Positions 16,645 to 25,155 of a stretch of DNA of 32,000 nt are shown here, in pieces. The stretch's first letter is position 1. Each line of letters begins with the position of its first letter. Both the position numbers and the translations under genes were made by a program. The notes below the pieces were generated by a model, which had not been told where the DNA came from, searched no databases, and worked only from the letters and a program-made list of their open reading frames with translations. The stretch comes from Nitrosopumilus maritimus SCM1 (lineage in GTDB: Archaea; Thermoproteota; Nitrososphaeria; Nitrososphaerales; Nitrosopumilaceae): positions 1,320,001 to 1,352,000 of the forward strand of contig NC_010085.1 of the NCBI RefSeq assembly GCF_000018465.1. The letters run 5' to 3'.

Positions 16645-17190
16645 ATGGCACAGGTTTTAGAAAAAAAGGGAGGACCATACCCAAAAAATAAGAAAATTAA
16701 GCGACAAAATGAGGTATTTCGTTTACATTTTGATTTAGGTTATTCTGCAGTAAAAATTTCTGAAATGATGAATGTTAATCGTAACACCGTTAATGGGGAC
16801 ATCCATTATTGGTATGGAATTCTTTCAAAAGAATGGGAGAGTTATGATATTGAAGCATGGCATATGAAACAGGTTCACAGATTAGAGTCTCAGAGAACCA
16901 GATTGTTTCAAGAGTTGGAAAAGACTACAGAAACCACAGTAAAGTTATCTATTGAAAGAATGATTTTGGATATTGATATCAAAATGACAAACTTTGTTTC
17001 AAAATCAGTGTATACTCAAGATTGGTTGAGAGATAGATCAGTAGCTTGGATCAATAAATGGGCAAAAGAGAACAATTCAAAGTATAGATTACTTGATGCA
17101 AATGCAGCTTGGTATACTAGTGAAGAGATTACTGAAAAGGTTCGTAAATTAATTCATGATGGTAAGATTGAGAAACGTGGAAAGATTTGA
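16645..17190 (+). CDS. hypothetical protein with putative N-terminal helix-turn-helix
   Basis: 181 aa. RQNEVFRLHFDLGYSAVKISEMMNVNRNTVNGDIHYW looks like a three-helix HTH (resolvase/terminase-small-subunit style). The remainder is helical and unassigned. Confidence 0.45.
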   Translation: MAQVLEKKGGPYPKNKKIKRQNEVFRLHFDLGYSAVKISEMMNVNRNTVNGDIHYWYGILSKEWESYDIEAWHMKQVHRLESQRTRLFQELEKTTETTVKLSIERMILDIDIKMTNFVSKSVYTQDWLRDRSVAWINKWAKENNSKYRLLDANAAWYTSEEITEKVRKLIHDGKIEKRGKI

Positions 17191-17218: not shown

Positions 17219-17626
17219 TCAGATGGGATAGTGAGGCATAAGATCCCTTGCAAGAAACTTTTTGATGTCGCCACCTTTTTCGTTCTGATAACCTACAACA
17301 CATTCTGAACCTCCAAGTTCAAAAATCCAGTCCATGCAGCTACCACAAGGTGTGAATTGTGTCCTTTGTGCCACCACAAGAATCGCCGTTAACTTTGTGC
17401 AGCCGCTTGATACCAAAGATGATATTGCTGAAACCTCTGCATGTATGTCGTGTGAACGGAATTTGTGTTCTATGTTGCATCCGGAAAAAATTTTCCCTTC
17501 TCCGGAAACCACTGCTGCACCAACCTGCGTCTTTCCAAGAACTCGTGCATTGGAATGAGAGTTCCAAGCAATTTCAGACATCTGATTCCAAATAGATTCT
17601 TCGACCAAGACACTCAACTTTTCCAT
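17219..17626 (-). CDS. cdd: cytidine/deoxycytidylate deaminase family protein (small CDA-like)
   Basis: Zinc-binding motifs HAEVSAI (H-A-E) and TPCGSCMDW (PCxxC) have the correct spacing in a 135-aa protein. Its ATG lies inside the last 13 nt of the upstream NACHT gene. Confidence 0.8.
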   Translation of the reverse strand: MEKLSVLVEESIWNQMSEIAWNSHSNARVLGKTQVGAAVVSGEGKIFSGCNIEHKFRSHDIHAEVSAISSLVSSGCTKLTAILVVAQRTQFTPCGSCMDWIFELGGSECVVGYQNEKGGDIKKFLARDLMPHYPI

Positions 17627-20079
17627 TCACCCTTTTTGTATTTTGATAATCGTTCTTCCCAATCTTCATCATGCACATGATCTGATTTTGATTCCTTTAC
17701 CTTTTCGAGCAAGGGAATCACAGACTCATCCCATTGCCCATATGCATTTCTGTAAAAGACTGTCTTTCCAATTTCATCAAGAATGTTTTTCCTTAATTTC
17801 GAAGCCATATTTCCTAATTTGTCTAGGATATCTTTACGCATATCCGCATCTTCAGTGATTGCAGCCATTTCCACCAATGCACGAGCAGCACCATATCGTA
17901 CCCAATGATAGGGGTCTGTTTCTAGAGCAATGAATAGTAGTTTTTTATTTTCCTCTGAGGGGCACTTTCCAAGTGGATGAATAATCCTCCATCTACGGGT
18001 GTTCTGATTTGGAACATCTGCATCAGAATAATCATACATGTCTCTTAGATCTTTTTGGTTTTCCTCACTTAGATTGCATTCACGTAAAACATTTGATGCA
18101 GTCCAACCAATCAAAGAATTGTCAGATTTTAACAACTTGAGAGTTTCATCATTGATTTCTGAATCACGTTTAATGGTAAACAATTGTTTCCATTCATCAA
18201 ACAAATCTGATTCAGATTTCATGACACTTATCATATCTATTAATTCTTTAAGATTATTTGCTTTAGTCAATTGTTCACCAAAGGTTTTCTCATAATCTCC
18301 CAAGTGATTTTTTGCAGATTCAGAAGTTTCATAACCATTATCAAATTGTTTTTGTGCAACCAATACTAACATTGCAGTAACTATATCTTCAGAATGATTG
18401 TTAATTCCTAACTTGGAATTTAATATGATGGATGCAATTGCAGCTTTCCAATTCCAATCATATACCTCCAACAAAAATCTGTCAGCAAGTTCTTTATTTT
18501 CGATCTGTTGCATTACCAGATGGATAGATTCTAGTGAACTGGACTCCAAAGTAGCTATGTCAAATTCATCTACATCCCAATTCTCTGGGTGTGATGCCAA
18601 ATATTCGGATACAAGAAAATCATGTAATAATTGATGACTAAATGTTGCATGGGTGTCACTTGTCGTAAATGCCGCACCTCCACCTAACAGTTTATCAAAT
18701 GTCTCTTGTCCTGTAATCTCTACAAAGTTTTTCAACTCAAATGATACCGAACCTTCTTGATATGCAAAAAATGACGCTTTTGCTAATTTCTTCATTTCCT
18801 CCTCATTCATCTTCAATCTCTCTTTGAAGAAATCATTTAGTACGGAAGATTCAGAAGTCATAGAAGCTGAACATCTCTCCATGGCAATATTGAGAAAGAA
18901 TGGTCTGGATAACAAACTCATGCTTACATCATTCAACTCATATTGTTCTTTACCAATAGTAATGTCTAGATTTTTTCTTATCTCTTCTTCACTCAAAGGA
19001 TTCAATGTAATTTTGTTCCATCCTGTAAGTGCACCACGTACATCCATCCTGTCCGTTAGCAGAACATATGTGTGAGGAGAAGTTTGTCTTACATATTCTC
19101 CTACATCTTGAATTATTTTTTCTGTTAATTCACCAAAATCGCCTGATTTGAATTCATTTATGCCATCAATCACTATTATGACATCTCCCTCAAAACTTTT
19201 GAGACGTTCCACTGTAATTTCCACACTAGACATTTTCAGCAGTTTGTCTATGCGTGACTCAGCACTTTCATCTCTCGCATCCTCCAATTCTTTAAAAAAT
19301 TCTGTTTCACTTCCATTAATGGGGATAAAAACAGGAAGAACCTTTTCTTTAACAATAGATTTGAGAAACTCTGTAACTGTGTTACTCTTTCCGCTTCCTG
19401 CAGCGCCTTTTAGGATTACTTTTCTTTTTGATTTTATGATTGAATGTAATTCAGTTATTGGAAATTTTTCTCCGTTTTCATCAGAAAATGTAATCCCAAA
19501 CTTATGTTCTGGTGGGGGTTTAGCTTCAAGTTTTGTAGTAAGTTCTTTAAGATATGATAAAAGGTTTAGATTTCCTTGCTGAAATTGTTGATCTTGGTCT
19601 CCAGAATCTTTTGTAACAGTTTGTTCATGAACTTCTTTAAGTATTCCAATTGCTTTATCCATTTTACTATCTAACTTTGTGGCAATATTCAGAATTTTTT
19701 GATTATATGCTGTCATAATTTTCTGAAAAGATGTTTCAGCTCCTTCCATCTCAATTTTTTGTTTTATTTCTGTTAACAGTTTTTCTGAATCAAATTTGTA
19801 TTCTGTATCTTGAAATGCATTTTCTAGTCCTTTAAGCAGGTTCAGGAAGTCTTGAACAGATCCTTCAGATAATTTTTTGAAATTGTCTGAAAATTCTTGT
19901 TTTGACAAAACATCAATTAGTATATCTCTACTTTCTGGATATTTGGCGCCAAATTCATCAATAATTTCTGTACGATATTCATTCCAATTCCACTTGAATG
20001 ATTTTTGAGCAAACTTGAATATCATTTCTGCAAGGGATAGTCCTAATCCTATCTCAGAAGACATGTTTTCTTCATTCAT
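17614..20079 (-). CDS. STAND NTPase: unassigned N-terminal helical domain + NACHT-type P-loop + C-terminal HEAT-like repeats
   Basis: Walker A is VILKGAAGSGKSNTV and Walker B is DVIIVIDGINEF (the NACHT-style hhhhDGhxE). The C-terminus has DPYHWVRYGAARALVEMAA (PBS-lyase/HEAT-like). The first ~215 aa are helical with no motif I recognise. Confidence 0.75.
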   Translation of the reverse strand: MNEENMSSEIGLGLSLAEMIFKFAQKSFKWNWNEYRTEIIDEFGAKYPESRDILIDVLSKQEFSDNFKKLSEGSVQDFLNLLKGLENAFQDTEYKFDSEKLLTEIKQKIEMEGAETSFQKIMTAYNQKILNIATKLDSKMDKAIGILKEVHEQTVTKDSGDQDQQFQQGNLNLLSYLKELTTKLEAKPPPEHKFGITFSDENGEKFPITELHSIIKSKRKVILKGAAGSGKSNTVTEFLKSIVKEKVLPVFIPINGSETEFFKELEDARDESAESRIDKLLKMSSVEITVERLKSFEGDVIIVIDGINEFKSGDFGELTEKIIQDVGEYVRQTSPHTYVLLTDRMDVRGALTGWNKITLNPLSEEEIRKNLDITIGKEQYELNDVSMSLLSRPFFLNIAMERCSASMTSESSVLNDFFKERLKMNEEEMKKLAKASFFAYQEGSVSFELKNFVEITGQETFDKLLGGGAAFTTSDTHATFSHQLLHDFLVSEYLASHPENWDVDEFDIATLESSSLESIHLVMQQIENKELADRFLLEVYDWNWKAAIASIILNSKLGINNHSEDIVTAMLVLVAQKQFDNGYETSESAKNHLGDYEKTFGEQLTKANNLKELIDMISVMKSESDLFDEWKQLFTIKRDSEINDETLKLLKSDNSLIGWTASNVLRECNLSEENQKDLRDMYDYSDADVPNQNTRRWRIIHPLGKCPSEENKKLLFIALETDPYHWVRYGAARALVEMAAITEDADMRKDILDKLGNMASKLRKNILDEIGKTVFYRNAYGQWDESVIPLLEKVKESKSDHVHDEDWEERLSKYKKGEWKS

Positions 20080-20204: not shown

Positions 20205-21287
20205 TTATTTGAGATTTTTTCTTATTTCATGTGCTAATGATTCTGCCACCAAAGGAGGAACTGCATCTGCAATTTGCTGATATTGTGAATTATTTGTGCC
20301 AAAAAATCTGAATGAGTCTGGAAAACTCTGTATTCTAGCTGCCTCTCTTACAGATATTATTCTATTTTCTTTAGGATGTAACAACATAGCTCGTCTTGCA
20401 TGAACAATTGTAGGAGTTGTATGTTGATAAGATAAACGTCTATAGATATTACCATGAAGAGAATTTTTATTTTTGAATCTAGATTTTGTTTTTTTAGATA
20501 GTGTTTTCCATGAATCAAGTAAACTTCTTCCTTCGTTAATTTCAGAAATTGTATTGATTACATCTTCTCCGTGTTTCGTACACCAATGATTGTACAAGTT
20601 ATTGATGTTTCCTCCTAATTTTTTTCCATATGGGGAATTAAATTTTTTAGGATGTTTCATAATTTCGTTTCCAGATGTACCTTGTTTTATAGAAGGTAAT
20701 CCTGAAATGACATCAAAAAGATTATCGCATGAAACAGGAATTTTGATCAAATTCAAATTACATTCATGTCCATTCAAAAAACCTGTTACAAAGAGTCGTT
20801 TTCGTTTTTGTGGAAGTCCTGCTTTTTCACAATCAATCACAGATACGCTCAGAATGTATCCTAATTTTTTAAAATCATTGAGGAATTTTTTCCAACCTGG
20901 GAGATTTCTAAAATTGGTAACATTTTCAAATAAAAATGCCTGAGGTTTTAATTCAGATATTATTCTGAAATAATGATTTATAGCATTTGCAAAGGGATGA
21001 TTTTTGCCATTATTTTGTTTATTTGCATTTGAATAAGGTTGACAAGGAGGTCCTCCTATTACACAAAATCTCTCTTTTGATGTGATTTTTTTTAGTTCGT
21101 TTGATTTTATGTTTTTTATATCATCTACAATTAATTTAGTCTCCTTGAAATTTTTTGAATATGTTTCAGCAGCACTCTTATCAAATTCCACTGCTGCAAT
21201 GACTTTGAACCCTGCATTCTTAAATCCTAAACTTAATCCACCTGAACCTGCAAATAGATCGATAACGCCAATTTCTTCTTTCCTCAT
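20205..21287 (-). CDS. DNA (cytosine-5)-methyltransferase
   Basis: All conserved m5C MTase blocks are readable. They are I DLFAGSGGLSLGF, IV GGPPCQPYS, VI FLFENV, VIII QKRKRLF, IX SVREAARIQSFPDSFRF and X QIADAVPPLVAESLA. Confidence 0.93.
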   Translation of the reverse strand: MRKEEIGVIDLFAGSGGLSLGFKNAGFKVIAAVEFDKSAAETYSKNFKETKLIVDDIKNIKSNELKKITSKERFCVIGGPPCQPYSNANKQNNGKNHPFANAINHYFRIISELKPQAFLFENVTNFRNLPGWKKFLNDFKKLGYILSVSVIDCEKAGLPQKRKRLFVTGFLNGHECNLNLIKIPVSCDNLFDVISGLPSIKQGTSGNEIMKHPKKFNSPYGKKLGGNINNLYNHWCTKHGEDVINTISEINEGRSLLDSWKTLSKKTKSRFKNKNSLHGNIYRRLSYQHTTPTIVHARRAMLLHPKENRIISVREAARIQSFPDSFRFFGTNNSQYQQIADAVPPLVAESLAHEIRKNLK

Positions 21288-21363
21288 ATTTTTAATAAAT
21301 TAAATCTGGATAAAAATCAAGTCCTGCAAGATTTATGTCATACCATGTTATTTTCATAATTAC

Positions 21364-22236
21364 ATGGCCTTATTTTTTAATGACCCAAAATTCCATACAA
21401 TCTATGAAAAAATAATGGATCTCAATGAATTGGTTTGGGAGAATAAATTAGATCCCTTTATGATTGAACAATGGCTAGAAAACTTTGATACTAAATCTGA
21501 TAAATTAGAAATGTTGGAATTGTTATCTAAATTTACTTATTACAATGAAAAAGAAATTTCTTCTCTTCTCACGTCCTCTTTTGAACTCTTGAAAAGCTAT
21601 TTGAGTTTGATTCACCTAAATCAAAAAATTGAAATTAGTGATTTGAATGAATTTGTGAAAAACAACTGTTATTTCGTTGGGACATGGGAAAATCCCAGTA
21701 AAAGTGGAGTTCATCTTTTATATGATTTTAGAGTTTTAAACAAATTACCCCCCAGAATTTTTTGTAACACTGTAAAAGATGTTCCAAAAAATGCACCGTT
21801 TGTTATTTTTCTTGACGATATTGCTGGTAGTGGAAGACAGGCCAGCGACTTCTGGAATCTACGAGTAATAAAGGAAAGAAAACATCTAACAAATACGAAA
21901 TTTCTCTATTTGGTATTGGTTGGAAATGAAAAGGGTATTGAGTATATTGAGACAAAAACTAAGATCAAAGTTCTTCCAGTGGTAAAATTAGATGATAGAT
22001 ACAAATTATTTTCAAAATCATCTATTTATTTCCCTGACAAAAAAAAGAGGCAAAAAGTACAAAAAATTTGTGAAAAATATGGGAAGAGACTATATGCCAA
22101 TAACCCTCTAGGTTTTGCAAATTCTCAAATGTTAATAGGCTTCCATCATAATATACCTGATAATACGTTACCAATAATATGGGAAAATAAAAATAACTGG
22201 GATCCAATATTCCCACGTTTTGGAGCTGTGGTGTAA
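21364..22236 (+). CDS. phosphoribosyltransferase (PRTase)-fold-like protein, first gene of three-gene operon
   Basis: 290 aa. The hydrophobic-DD-small-GSG loop PFVIFLDDIAGSGRQASDFW resembles the PRPP-binding loop of type I PRTases (hhhhDD-x-x-T/S-G-x-T). The preceding YFVGTWENPSKSGVHLLYDF resembles the PRTase core. The N-terminal ~110 aa are helical and unassigned. Confidence 0.45.
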   Translation: MALFFNDPKFHTIYEKIMDLNELVWENKLDPFMIEQWLENFDTKSDKLEMLELLSKFTYYNEKEISSLLTSSFELLKSYLSLIHLNQKIEISDLNEFVKNNCYFVGTWENPSKSGVHLLYDFRVLNKLPPRIFCNTVKDVPKNAPFVIFLDDIAGSGRQASDFWNLRVIKERKHLTNTKFLYLVLVGNEKGIEYIETKTKIKVLPVVKLDDRYKLFSKSSIYFPDKKKRQKVQKICEKYGKRLYANNPLGFANSQMLIGFHHNIPDNTLPIIWENKNNWDPIFPRFGAVV

Positions 22237-22241
22237 AGAGC

Positions 22242-24224
22242 ATGCAAATTAGAAATCCCTTTGAAGAAGTAAATGCAAATAATCTAGATGATGATGAAAT
22301 CTTAGATTTTTGGATTAAACCTGAGGGTATTTTCAACAAACAGCTTGAGGGAATCAAATTAACTGGTCTCACTCCATTGTTTTTATTTGGTGGAAGGGGT
22401 ACTGGAAAAACTACCGTTTTAAAATACATGTCATTTGATCTACAACAAAAAGAATTTCTTAAAAAAAATACTGACATGAAAAATTTCTTAACAAAAAATA
22501 ATTTCATAGGAATTTATCATAGATTTGATGGTCCACAACTGGACGCATTTAATGCAGGACCAGATGATCGAAAATGTCTTGAAGCATTTCGATTTTTTAT
22601 TGAACTTGTACTATCACAAAATTTCCTTTGGATTGTTGAAAAACTTCTAGAAAACAAATCCATCACTTCAAAATTTAATGAAAAAACCCTATGTGCTAAT
22701 ATCTCTGAATTAATTTTTGGCAAAAAAATCACATCTTTGTCTACCATCTCAAAAATTAGGAAAAAATTAGGAACTATTCAGTATTCCTTAGAGAAAGCAC
22801 GAGATAAATCTGCAATAGATGGAAAAGAAATTGATATTAAAAATATAATTCCTAGAGGTAGACTAATTTTCGATCTACAAAATGAAATCACAAAAACTAT
22901 TCAAGAACTCAAAAACATAAAAATTCTTTATTTGTTTGATGAGTATGAAAATCTCACATATGATCAACAATTACTTTTCAATACTCTGATCAAACATAGG
23001 AAATTCAATGTAAGTTTCAAAATTGGTTCTCGTTTAAAGGGTGTGAAAACTTACGATACATTAACAACTGAGGAATATCTTAGAGAACCTGCTGATTATA
23101 GAAAAATAATCTTTGAAAATATTCTAAATGTCTCGTCATTAGAATACAAAAAAATTCTTATTAAAATTGCTGAAAAACGCTTACGTCACATTCCTGAATT
23201 TAAATCAAAGAATCTAACCGATATTAAAAAAATCCTGGGCTATAGCCTTTCACCTGAACAAGAAGCCAATAGGATTGTTAACTCTAGCAAAGACAAACGA
23301 AAACATTTCTACAAAATTGAAAAACACAAAAAAACTTCAATTAGTGAAAAAACAATATCTGACTTAAAATGTGAAGGAAGGCCATTAATTGAAAAACTGA
23401 ATATGATGTTATTAAATCGAAACTATCCAATATCTAAAATCAAACTAATGATGAACCATTTTGTTTCTAGAAACTCAAAATCAAGTTATCATAAACAATA
23501 CAAAAATCTCTATGACAAAAACAAAGTTGCTTTATTGTTTCAATTGATATCTGACTACAGACCTAGGGAGAAACAATATTCTGGATTTGATACTTATGTG
23601 AGTCTTTCTTCTGGTATCATAAGGACTTTCCTAGAATTATGTTTTCATGCATTTCATTTTGCAATATTTGCCGAACAAAAGAATTTGTTATCTGGTAAAC
23701 CAATATCTCACGAATTACAAAATGATGCTGCAAAATTAATGTCACAGAAATATTATGAAGAAATTGCAGTGATTCCTAAAGGCTATGGGGTGTTTGTTGC
23801 TAGATTAGTTGATAACATTGGTTCAATTTTACGTGGATTACATAAAGATCCTCTAATTTCTGAACCTGAACCCACATACTTTACAATTGAATATGAAAAT
23901 CTTGATTTGAAAACTAGAAGTGTTATTGACACTGCAGAACAATGGTCAATTTTACAACGAACTATTTCTATGAAGCCAAAAGCAAAATTACAAGCACATC
24001 TAACTGATTTTCATATTAATAGAATGTTCTGTCCAAAATATTCAATTTCATATCGTAGACGAGGTAGAACATTAATCACTCCATCTGAAATACACATTCT
24101 AACATTTGGGAATGAACAAGAACAAAAAACTATTCGTGAATTAGTTAGTAGAGAAAAAGAAGTTAGAAAGGCTAGGAAAGTCAGAGACCAAGGACAACCC
24201 AAAATTATTGATTTTTTAGATTAA
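22242..24224 (+). CDS. P-loop ATPase (AAA/ORC-Cdc6-like N-terminal domain) with large unassigned C-terminal region
   Basis: Walker A is LFLFGGRGTGKTTVLKYM and Walker B is KILYLFDEYENL. It starts 5 nt after the upstream stop. About 400 C-terminal residues carry no motif I recognise. Confidence 0.65.
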   Translation: MQIRNPFEEVNANNLDDDEILDFWIKPEGIFNKQLEGIKLTGLTPLFLFGGRGTGKTTVLKYMSFDLQQKEFLKKNTDMKNFLTKNNFIGIYHRFDGPQLDAFNAGPDDRKCLEAFRFFIELVLSQNFLWIVEKLLENKSITSKFNEKTLCANISELIFGKKITSLSTISKIRKKLGTIQYSLEKARDKSAIDGKEIDIKNIIPRGRLIFDLQNEITKTIQELKNIKILYLFDEYENLTYDQQLLFNTLIKHRKFNVSFKIGSRLKGVKTYDTLTTEEYLREPADYRKIIFENILNVSSLEYKKILIKIAEKRLRHIPEFKSKNLTDIKKILGYSLSPEQEANRIVNSSKDKRKHFYKIEKHKKTSISEKTISDLKCEGRPLIEKLNMMLLNRNYPISKIKLMMNHFVSRNSKSSYHKQYKNLYDKNKVALLFQLISDYRPREKQYSGFDTYVSLSSGIIRTFLELCFHAFHFAIFAEQKNLLSGKPISHELQNDAAKLMSQKYYEEIAVIPKGYGVFVARLVDNIGSILRGLHKDPLISEPEPTYFTIEYENLDLKTRSVIDTAEQWSILQRTISMKPKAKLQAHLTDFHINRMFCPKYSISYRRRGRTLITPSEIHILTFGNEQEQKTIRELVSREKEVRKARKVRDQGQPKIIDFLD

Positions 24225-24225
24225 A

Positions 24226-25155
24226 ATGAAAAATATCCAAGAACTTGATTCATTAATCCAAGTAAAACCGTTAGAATATGATTATTTTATTTATACAAAA
24301 AATTCAGAAAAGAGATCATCAAACGTACTAAATATTTTTAAAAAATCAAAAATCAAAATTAAAAATTTAATTGAATTACAGTTTGAAGACACTCAAACAC
24401 CTAAAATCAGAACAATTGGATCAAGATATGTGATCACTTGTCCTTACAGACATGTTCTTATGGGCATTAAATCTATTTTTGACTTATTACACAATCTACA
24501 TTTCAAAATTAATGATAAGGTGTGTATTGATATTACTGGTACTGATGTACCATATTTTTTCCATCTTCTAAAAACACTCAAATTTAAAAAAATGTTATCA
24601 AAAATTGATTTAGTATACACAGAACCTGAAACATATAAAAAAACTTCAAATAAATTTATTTTTTCCGAGGGAATTAGAAATGTAAAACAATTTCCTGCAT
24701 ATACTGGAAGAACAAACCCAAATGGGAAAAAAATACTTTTGATTTTAATAGGTTTTGAAGGACACCGTTCATACAAAGTCTTAGACTCTATTGAGCCCGA
24801 CAAAACATTGGCGCTAAATGGATTTCCAAGTTATTCGTTAGAATTCAAAGATACTAGTATTCTTGAAAACAAAGAACTGTTAACTAGTCCATCATGTAAA
24901 AATAATACTCTTTTAGCATCAGCACACAATCCTTTTGAAACATTAAAAATTCTCAATAATCTTCCGTCTAGCCACAAGAAACATAATTTAATCATGGCTC
25001 CTATAGGAACAAAACCTATGTCTTTAGGGGCTTGTCTTTATTGTCTCAAAAATGAATCGGTTCGCGTAGTTTTTCCTTATCCCAATTCATATATTTCCAA
25101 AAATGCACCTGCAGAAAAAATTGGTAAAACTTGGATCTATCAATTAGTTCTTTGA
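24226..25155 (+). CDS. hypothetical Rossmann-like protein with DITGT and IGTKPMSLGA motifs (possible CARF/DxTGGTK-like ligand-binding fold)
   Basis: 309 aa, starting 1 nt after the upstream stop. Beta-strand-then-glycine patterns (KVCIDITGTDVPYFFHLL; KILLILIGFEGHRS; HNLIMAPIGTKPMSLGACLY) suggest Rossmann-like units. GTKxMS resembles the DxTGGTKxMS motif of some CARF-family proteins. Weak, by-eye only. Confidence 0.35.
   Translation: MKNIQELDSLIQVKPLEYDYFIYTKNSEKRSSNVLNIFKKSKIKIKNLIELQFEDTQTPKIRTIGSRYVITCPYRHVLMGIKSIFDLLHNLHFKINDKVCIDITGTDVPYFFHLLKTLKFKKMLSKIDLVYTEPETYKKTSNKFIFSEGIRNVKQFPAYTGRTNPNGKKILLILIGFEGHRSYKVLDSIEPDKTLALNGFPSYSLEFKDTSILENKELLTSPSCKNNTLLASAHNPFETLKILNNLPSSHKKHNLIMAPIGTKPMSLGACLYCLKNESVRVVFPYPNSYISKNAPAEKIGKTWIYQLVL

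Follow-up and report, generated by a model that had tools for sequence, protein, structure and literature searches.

Relation to described systems

Phosphoribosyltransferases (PRTases) increasingly turn out to be a recurring weapon in prokaryotic immunity, with examples in type III-A retrons, ShosTA/PsyrTA, Ophion and a PRTase-NADAR pair, and their acceptor substrates and modes of activation in this setting are barely known. The PRTase gene analysed here lies at positions 21364 to 22236 of a 32,000-nucleotide stretch of Nitrosopumilus maritimus SCM1 (contig NC_010085.1, positions 1,320,001 to 1,352,000, forward strand), which is referred to as the window. It is the first gene of an operon that also encodes an ORC/Cdc6-like AAA+ ATPase and a CARF6-type sensor protein, and on balance its product is read here as the enzymatic effector of a defence cassette.

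Among the closest described proteins are the PRTase effectors of type III-A retrons (Retron-Eco11, PMC12746101; classification, PMC7736814), where homologous PRTases form the toxic output. The Retron-Eco11 effector carries the motif VVILTDTIGSGNQ for binding of phosphoribosyl pyrophosphate (PRPP); a mutant in this motif loses defence, and PRPP falls by ~50% upon activation. The same study describes Gx14PNNxP as distinctive of retron-associated PRTase-like proteins (PMC12746101). The window PRTase is homologous to these effectors nearly throughout (residues 26-287), with a common type of PRPP loop (hydrophobic run, acidic pair, x-x-GSG-x-Q) and a common G-x14-P-[DN]-N signature. In contrast to the Retron-Eco11 PRTase, it is devoid of a C-terminal winged-helix extension and has DD where Eco11 has TD. 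The locus differs from a type III-A retron in having no reverse transcriptase, and hence no multicopy single-stranded DNA (msDNA), and its neighbours are instead a DNA methylase, the AAA+ ATPase and the CARF protein. A further relative comes from E. coli, for which the DefensePredictor supplement gives a PRTase of retron-III-like type (343 aa, C-terminal ...PNNVP...) with a NADAR protein as its partner; the main text names PRTase and NADAR among the domains of validated systems (PMC13092281).

ShosT and PsyrT (ComF-like, PF15610) are likewise PRTase-fold toxins of defence systems, and ShosT is reported to kill by upsetting purine metabolism through coupled PRTase and pyrophosphatase activity (PMC11961720). 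The window PRTase is of a different family, without a match to PF15610 (ComF-like PRTase_3) at E <= 0.01 in the Pfam scan, without a DprA-like antitoxin neighbour and in another gene context. With the classical type I salvage PRTases (APRT, OPRT, UPRT and HGPRT; PF00156) it has the core fold and the PRPP-binding loop in common; it is similar to them in sequence at that loop only, and differs in its accessory distribution, its extra helical domain and its C-terminal 'hood'.

As a whole, the locus resembles a predicted PRTase-CE/ORC-CDC6-like/CARF6 conflict cassette found at ~80 other loci, with which it shares the full length of the three core proteins, their order, their tight coupling and a methylase beside them. 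Its methylase is of the C5 class and is encoded on the opposite strand, whereas most loci carry an N6/N4 enzyme upstream on the same strand, and its host is an archaeon with a 1.65-Mb genome. The window cassette adds a new archaeal member to a kind that is known, though its mechanism is still open, the three core families being already catalogued. This kind of cassette is the most widespread non-retron home of a retron-type PRTase, and it joins three elements never explained together, namely a self-marking methylase, a stand-alone CARF sensor without a signal synthase, and an effector that is not a nuclease. Its presence in a marine ammonia oxidiser available in culture would offer archaeal virus-host biology a concrete immune system.

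Family, conserved motifs and predicted fold of the PRTase

The gene and its principal elements are as follows.

21364..22236, + strand: PRTase-CE family phosphoribosyltransferase, 290 aa, with an N-terminal helical domain (residues ~1-101) and a type I PRTase core (PF24390, PADLOC PRTase_III-A, AlphaFold2 and Foldseek)
21691..21708, + strand: NPSKSG loop, residues 110-115, candidate pyrophosphate (PPi)-binding loop (position in the model after the first core strand)
21802..21843, + strand: PRPP-binding loop VIFLDDIAGSGRQA, residues 147-160, with the acidic pair D151 and D152 (translation, conservation, and hhalign to APRT/OPRT)
22111..22173, + strand: family signature G250-x14-P265-D-N267-x-x-P270 (GF...HHNIPDNTLP) (conservation; retron-PRTase motif Gx14PNNxP)

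The open reading frame (ORF) at 21364..22236 (+) begins with ATG and encodes 290 aa. Its product matched the Pfam family PF24390 (PRTase-CE) with 217.4 bits and E = 3.8e-64 over residues 34-285, covering model positions 1-253 of 253 (curated gathering threshold, 27 bits). All five PADLOC models for type III-A retron PRTase effectors matched as well, the best being PRTase_III-A (4.1e-50, residues 26-287). The Pfam scan gave no match of the PRTase to PF00156 (Pribosyltran) at E <= 0.01, and a PF00156 search of the genome retrieved four other genes (APRT, OPRT, PRPP synthetase and one further ORF), the PRTase-CE gene not being among them. A search of NCBIfam yielded no model matching the PRTase, ATPase or CARF6 proteins. 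When the PRTase was used as query, 68 homologous proteins were returned, PF24390 being present in every one. Judged by its sequence, the PRTase gene is a member of an already catalogued conflict family (PF24390; PADLOC PRTase_III-A), and the label "hypothetical protein" could be replaced by "PRTase-CE family defence effector".

A public protein record of the gene (P0001, 273 aa) begins at the internal Met18 (region 21364-21417 of the window). Since the first 17 residues align in homologues and a helix of the model spans residues 8-23, the upstream ATG at 21364 (290 aa) is a better start than M18.

Residue conservation was counted over 94 PRTase homologues; a smaller alignment comprised 48 of the 68 homologous proteins. 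In the translation, PFVIFLDDIAGSGRQA begins at residue 145 and GFANSQMLIGFHHNIPDNTLPIIWE at residue 250. The acidic pair D151 and D152 was invariant in the 48-sequence alignment, with G155 and G157 almost so, and both aspartates were retained in 94 of 94 homologues, together with S/T156 and G157 in 92 each and Q159 in 78. Thus the DD-x-x-GSG segment is conserved and the catalytic acidic pair intact. R123 was found in 93 of the 94 and R285 in 92, and within the NPSKSG loop (pattern N-P-S-[EK]-S-G) S114 was kept in 90 and G115 in 86. In the C-terminal signature G250, P265 and P270 were each present in all 94 sequences and N263 and N267 in 92 each, the conservation of residues 263-270 being partly by construction, since the peptide N[ITV]PDNTLP served as bait in retrieving the genome loci; the DD pair lies outside this bait. 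On comparison of sequences, the signature corresponds to the retron-PRTase hallmark Gx14PNNxP. The protein is thus a retron-type PRTase outside a retron. A reading of the locus as a retron was itself rejected, no reverse transcriptase (RVT_1) match having been found anywhere in the 99.6%-complete genome.

The AlphaFold2 model of the PRTase, built from the 48-sequence alignment, had a mean predicted local distance difference test score (pLDDT) of 93.6 and a predicted template modelling score (pTM) of 0.89. Helices extend over residues 3-101 and are followed by a beta-alpha core, of which the first strand comprises residues 102-106. The NPSKSG loop comes after this strand, the DD pair ends the strand 146-154, and GSG opens the helix 158-174. 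In the model, these elements are thus arranged as in the PRPP loop of type I PRTases. From its position between strand 102-106 and helix 114-125, we infer that NPSKSG is a candidate PPi loop.

A Foldseek search of the model against the PDB returned PRTase-fold proteins throughout its top 50, made up of 49 orotate, uracil, adenine or hypoxanthine-guanine PRTases and one PRPP synthetase (best match, E = 1.8e-4, probability 1.0). Template modelling scores (TM-scores) were 0.25-0.33 on the query and up to 0.56 on the target; the low query values are due to the extra ~100-aa helical domain and the different C-terminal 'hood', and the pattern fits a conserved core of ~150 residues in the model, with a family-specific N-domain and C-terminal region. 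The PRTase family profile found nothing significant among PDB chain sequences, the best being APRT (E = 1.7, PRPP loop only). Likewise, hhalign of the family profile with the APRT and OPRT of the genome aligned the PRPP loop alone (probability ~2%), placing VIFLDDIAGSGRQA on the DD-x-x-x-T/S-G loop of both. As sequence comparisons see only the PRPP loop, the claim of a PRTase fold rests on structure prediction. These results bear out three points of an earlier note on this DNA, which had proposed a PRPP-loop-like DD motif of a type I PRTase, a helical N-terminal domain of ~110 aa and a C-terminal part unlike that of salvage PRTases. Neither of the two outcomes by which that note would have been refuted, a predicted fold other than that of a PRTase or a DD-x-x-GSG segment not conserved in homologues, was observed.

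The operon and its divergent methylase

The partners of the PRTase gene are as follows.

20205..21287, - strand: C5 cytosine DNA methyltransferase, 360 aa, divergent partner of the operon (Pfam PF00145, 2.7e-67)
21288..21363, strand not assigned: 76-nt AT-rich divergent intergenic region, presumed promoter region for both transcription units (from sequence, the promoter role being presumptive)
22242..24224, + strand: ORC/Cdc6-like AAA+ ATPase, 660 aa (Pfam PF24389, 7.4e-120, residues 5-609)
24226..25155, + strand: CARF6-type stand-alone sensor protein, 309 aa (PADLOC CARF6 PDLC01922, 1.3e-151, full length)

In the operon, 5 nt separate the PRTase gene from the ATPase gene and 1 nt separates the latter from CARF6; the PRTase gene was correctly placed by the earlier note as the first gene of a methyltransferase-linked operon. 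The ATPase carries GGRGTGKT (residue 50) as its Walker A motif and LYLFDEYE as a Walker B-like one. For CARF6, the AlphaFold2 model had a pLDDT of 93.7, and Foldseek matched it to the CARF domains of Csm6, Cam1, Can2 and Card1 (E ~1e-3 to 1e-4), among other Rossmann-like folds. The CARF6 profile had no sequence match in the PDB, and a word-based homologue search with CARF6 gave 12 close relatives only.

The divergence of the methylase follows that of the operon. In the metagenomic locus L001, where no NACHT or deaminase gene is annotated, the methylase was 74% identical to that of the window, in comparison with 67% for the PRTase, 76% for the ATPase and 70% for CARF6, while at locus L003 the methylase was 36% identical and the core proteins 38-39%. 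Because methylase and operon diverge in step in loci without annotated NACHT or deaminase genes, the methylase is taken to be inherited together with the operon and to belong to the PRTase cassette, against an assignment to the NACHT module alone. It may serve the NACHT module on its other side too.

Conservation of the cassette across genomes

Eighty genome loci with PRTase relatives were taken for comparison of gene context, and methylases were counted on 81 non-redundant loci. The bacterial hosts belong to Pseudomonadota, Bacteroidota, Chloroflexota, Actinomycetota, Acidobacteriota, Planctomycetota, Verrucomicrobiota and others, and the archaeal ones to Bathyarchaeota, Heimdallarchaeota and Thermoplasmatales. 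In every locus with sufficient downstream sequence, the PRTase gene was followed on the same strand by the ATPase and then CARF6, mostly with overlaps or gaps of a few nucleotides, and two proteins (P0068 and P0183) are natural PRTase-CE/ATPase fusions. A DNA methylase was found at most 2.8 kb upstream in at least 78 of the 81 loci (N6_N4_Mtase in 75, C5 in 3). A second subtype of the cassette, seen in Pseudomonas, Aeromonas and a Lachnospiraceae genome, consists of PRTase-CE, ATPase and a CARF-like protein with N6_Mtase downstream; a dUTPase gene precedes both gammaproteobacterial copies, and integrases adjoin the Pseudomonas and Lachnospiraceae copies.

The position occupied by the PRTase gene can also be taken by other phosphoester-acting enzymes. 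The PF24389 ATPase was present in 14 of 401 Bacteroidia genomes, and the gene before the ATPase-CARF6 pair encoded PRTase-CE in 6 loci, HD-CE (PF24391) in 3 and a calcineurin-like phosphoesterase (Metallophos) in 3, two of the last with a winged helix-turn-helix (wHTH). A C5 or Dam-like DNA methylase lay beside five of the six HD-CE or Metallophos loci examined, none being found next to L121, and ThyA was present in two of the six. The combination of a constant sensor pair with a swappable enzyme leads us to read the PRTase position as an effector slot. At a further Bacteroidia locus (L109, 625-3162), an 846-aa ORC-CDC6-like ATPase has an N-terminal extension of ~290 aa with a weak ABC1 kinase-like match. 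Its gene comes after a fragment of Druantia DruA, and the locus may represent another variant, with the enzyme slot fused to the ATPase.

Thymidylate synthases accompany the cassette in ~32 of 81 loci (~40%), with ThyX upstream in 13, ThyA upstream in 7 and related ORFs downstream in 12 (four members of this downstream cluster were scanned, and all were ThyX). They are often translationally coupled, and the loci include L004, L009, L014-L019, L030, L038, L045-L053, L063, L066, L120 and L122. In the second subtype, dUTPase takes the place of thymidylate synthase (L095/L096). In Flavobacterium faecale, the ThyA of the cassette is a second copy, another being encoded elsewhere in the genome. The window cassette has neither a thymidylate synthase nor a dUTPase gene. 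That two non-homologous enzymes of the same activity, ThyX and ThyA, recur beside the cassette suggests that dUMP/dTMP chemistry matters to the system.

Distribution and mobility

The N. maritimus genome is a single contig of 1,645,259 bp and is 99.6% complete. The cassette has a GC content of 29.6%, in comparison with 35.5% and 37.9% in its flanks, and is part of an accessory region, bounded by pterin genes and valS, that also contains genes for a NACHT-type NTPase and a member of the cytidine-deaminase family. PF24390 was found above threshold in 7 of 121 genomes of the same family, and in none of the six other genomes of the same genus, where the weak matches were housekeeping PRTase-fold genes such as PRPP synthetase. 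Relatives of the PRTase are carried by 21 plasmids, including conjugative ones of Rhizobium, and by two IMG/VR contigs. The system is patchy in its distribution and is borne on islands and plasmids. On the conjugative plasmid pRlX2 of Rhizobium beringeri (L087, 10316-11887), the cassette has a site-specific integrase on one side and a SIR2-family gene on the other, a defence-island setting; its ATPase is annotated there as two ORFs, possibly owing to a frameshift.

The conflict-system context put forward in the earlier note is upheld by the matches to retron-effector models, by the conserved methylase-linked cassette with its fixed ATPase and CARF6 order, and by the patchy occurrence on plasmids and islands.

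Proposed function and alternative explanations

We consider it somewhat better than an even chance that PRTase-CE is the catalytically intact enzymatic effector of a four-gene, methylation-linked defence cassette (methyltransferase, PRTase-CE, ATPase and CARF6), the PRPP-consuming mechanism included. Family, fold and genomic logic are as described above; the chemistry we infer. In the proposed mechanism, the methylase would mark the DNA of the host, while the DNA-binding-type ATPase and CARF6 would detect the invader, most simply as unmethylated DNA and/or an infection-specific nucleotide. Detection would release or activate the PRTase, which would then move a phosphoribosyl group from PRPP onto an acceptor, consuming PRPP. 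Nucleotide synthesis would be starved, so that the invader, and probably the cell as well, could no longer replicate, as reported for Retron-Eco11. By this analogy, the PRTase probably collapses the nucleotide supply through its consumption of PRPP. Of the two roles that the earlier note had offered, that of effector is thus the better supported, and that of a nucleotide-sensing switch less so.

Several points weigh against this assignment. In the literature searched, no paper testing the methylase-PRTase-ATPase-CARF6 cassette was found; its original bioinformatic descriptions are probably those of Makarova et al. (2020) and Burroughs et al. (2015). A CARF protein normally requires a source of cyclic oligonucleotides; a profile search of the complete genome found neither Csm1/Cmr2 (Cas10) nor a SMODS cyclase, and the signalling logic of CARF6 is therefore unexplained. 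The drop in PRPP seen with Retron-Eco11 was modest (~50%, P = 0.04), and another reaction could have brought it about as a side effect. In addition, an effector that drains a metabolite pool has no obvious need of a self-marking methylase, and the frequent thymidylate synthase and dUTPase partners are not explained by the effector model. A CARF6 protein without a signal synthase, and these same partners, keep two of the alternatives alive, those in which the PRTase handles a signal or modifies a macromolecule.

In the first of these, the PRTase would make or process a signal: a phosphoribosyl nucleotide would be formed from PRPP, or destroyed, CARF6 would bind it, and the ATPase acting on DNA would be the real output. 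The CARF-like fold of CARF6 agrees with this, and since the genome has no Cas10 or SMODS synthase, the PRTase would be the only nucleotide-forming enzyme at hand. However, HD or calcineurin-like hydrolases fill the same slot, and it is unlikely that homologous CARF6 proteins would receive one ligand from three unrelated enzymes; the exchange of effectors under one sensor is instead the usual modular pattern. Furthermore, the homologous retron PRTases are toxic effectors (PMC12746101), and Pfam and PADLOC scans of the ATPase and CARF6 revealed neither a nuclease nor a pore domain. We regard such a signalling role as unlikely, though deserving of consideration.

Modification of a macromolecule appears to us distinctly improbable. 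Here, 5-phosphoribose from PRPP would be placed on a base nitrogen of unmethylated invader DNA, or on RNA or protein, giving a restriction-like block without cutting, and the methylase would shield host DNA; if this were true, the cassette would be an analogue of restriction-modification in which phosphoribosylation, not cutting, blocks the DNA. The association of the cassette with methylases of at least four classes speaks for discrimination at the level of DNA, and the ATPase that accompanies the PRTase belongs to a DNA-binding type. N-ribosyl and N-phosphoribosyl bonds, among them that of ADP-ribose on DNA guanine, are substrates of NADAR/YbiA enzymes, which split them. If NADAR cleaves such bonds, a PRTase and NADAR pair looks like the writer and eraser of a phosphoribosyl mark, and the E. 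coli retron-III-like pair (PMC13092281) would be one; the PRPP consumption in Retron-Eco11 fits too (PMC12746101). Against such a role, the HD and Metallophos alternatives have different chemistry. We know of no PRTase acting on polymeric DNA. Moreover, C5 methylation would not block a target at an exocyclic amine.

It seems very improbable that the PRTase is a non-catalytic, nucleotide-binding regulatory subunit, PyrR- or ComFC-like, which tunes the ATPase. Some PRTase-fold proteins are regulators, and the unique helical N-domain and the natural fusions to the ATPase are in keeping with such a part. Yet the acidic pair and the phosphate-binding GSG loop are kept across phyla, and mutation of the same motif abolishes defence by Retron-Eco11 (PMC12746101).

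Finally, that the protein is an ordinary purine or pyrimidine salvage enzyme, lying by chance beside a methylase, is hardly credible in spite of its PRTase fold and intact PRPP loop, and this reading is effectively refuted, as the protein matches neither PF00156 nor any NCBIfam model, APRT, OPRT and PRPP synthetase are already encoded in the genome along with a fourth ORF that matches PF00156, and the gene is accessory, not being found in the other same-genus genomes searched and being carried on an AT-rich island and on plasmids, in a fixed context in which ATPase and CARF6 always follow.

Neighbouring genes of the island

Downstream of the C5 methylase, on the same strand and after a gap of 125 nt, lies a second defence-like module (17219-20079, - strand), in which the gene for an 821-aa P-loop NTPase with AAA/NACHT-like and HEAT matches has a translational overlap with a 135-aa gene of the cytidine/dCMP-deaminase family. 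At the left edge of the AT-rich island (16645-17190, + strand), a 181-aa protein with a sigma-70 region-4/helix-turn-helix (HTH)-like N-terminus is encoded, which may regulate the genes of the island.

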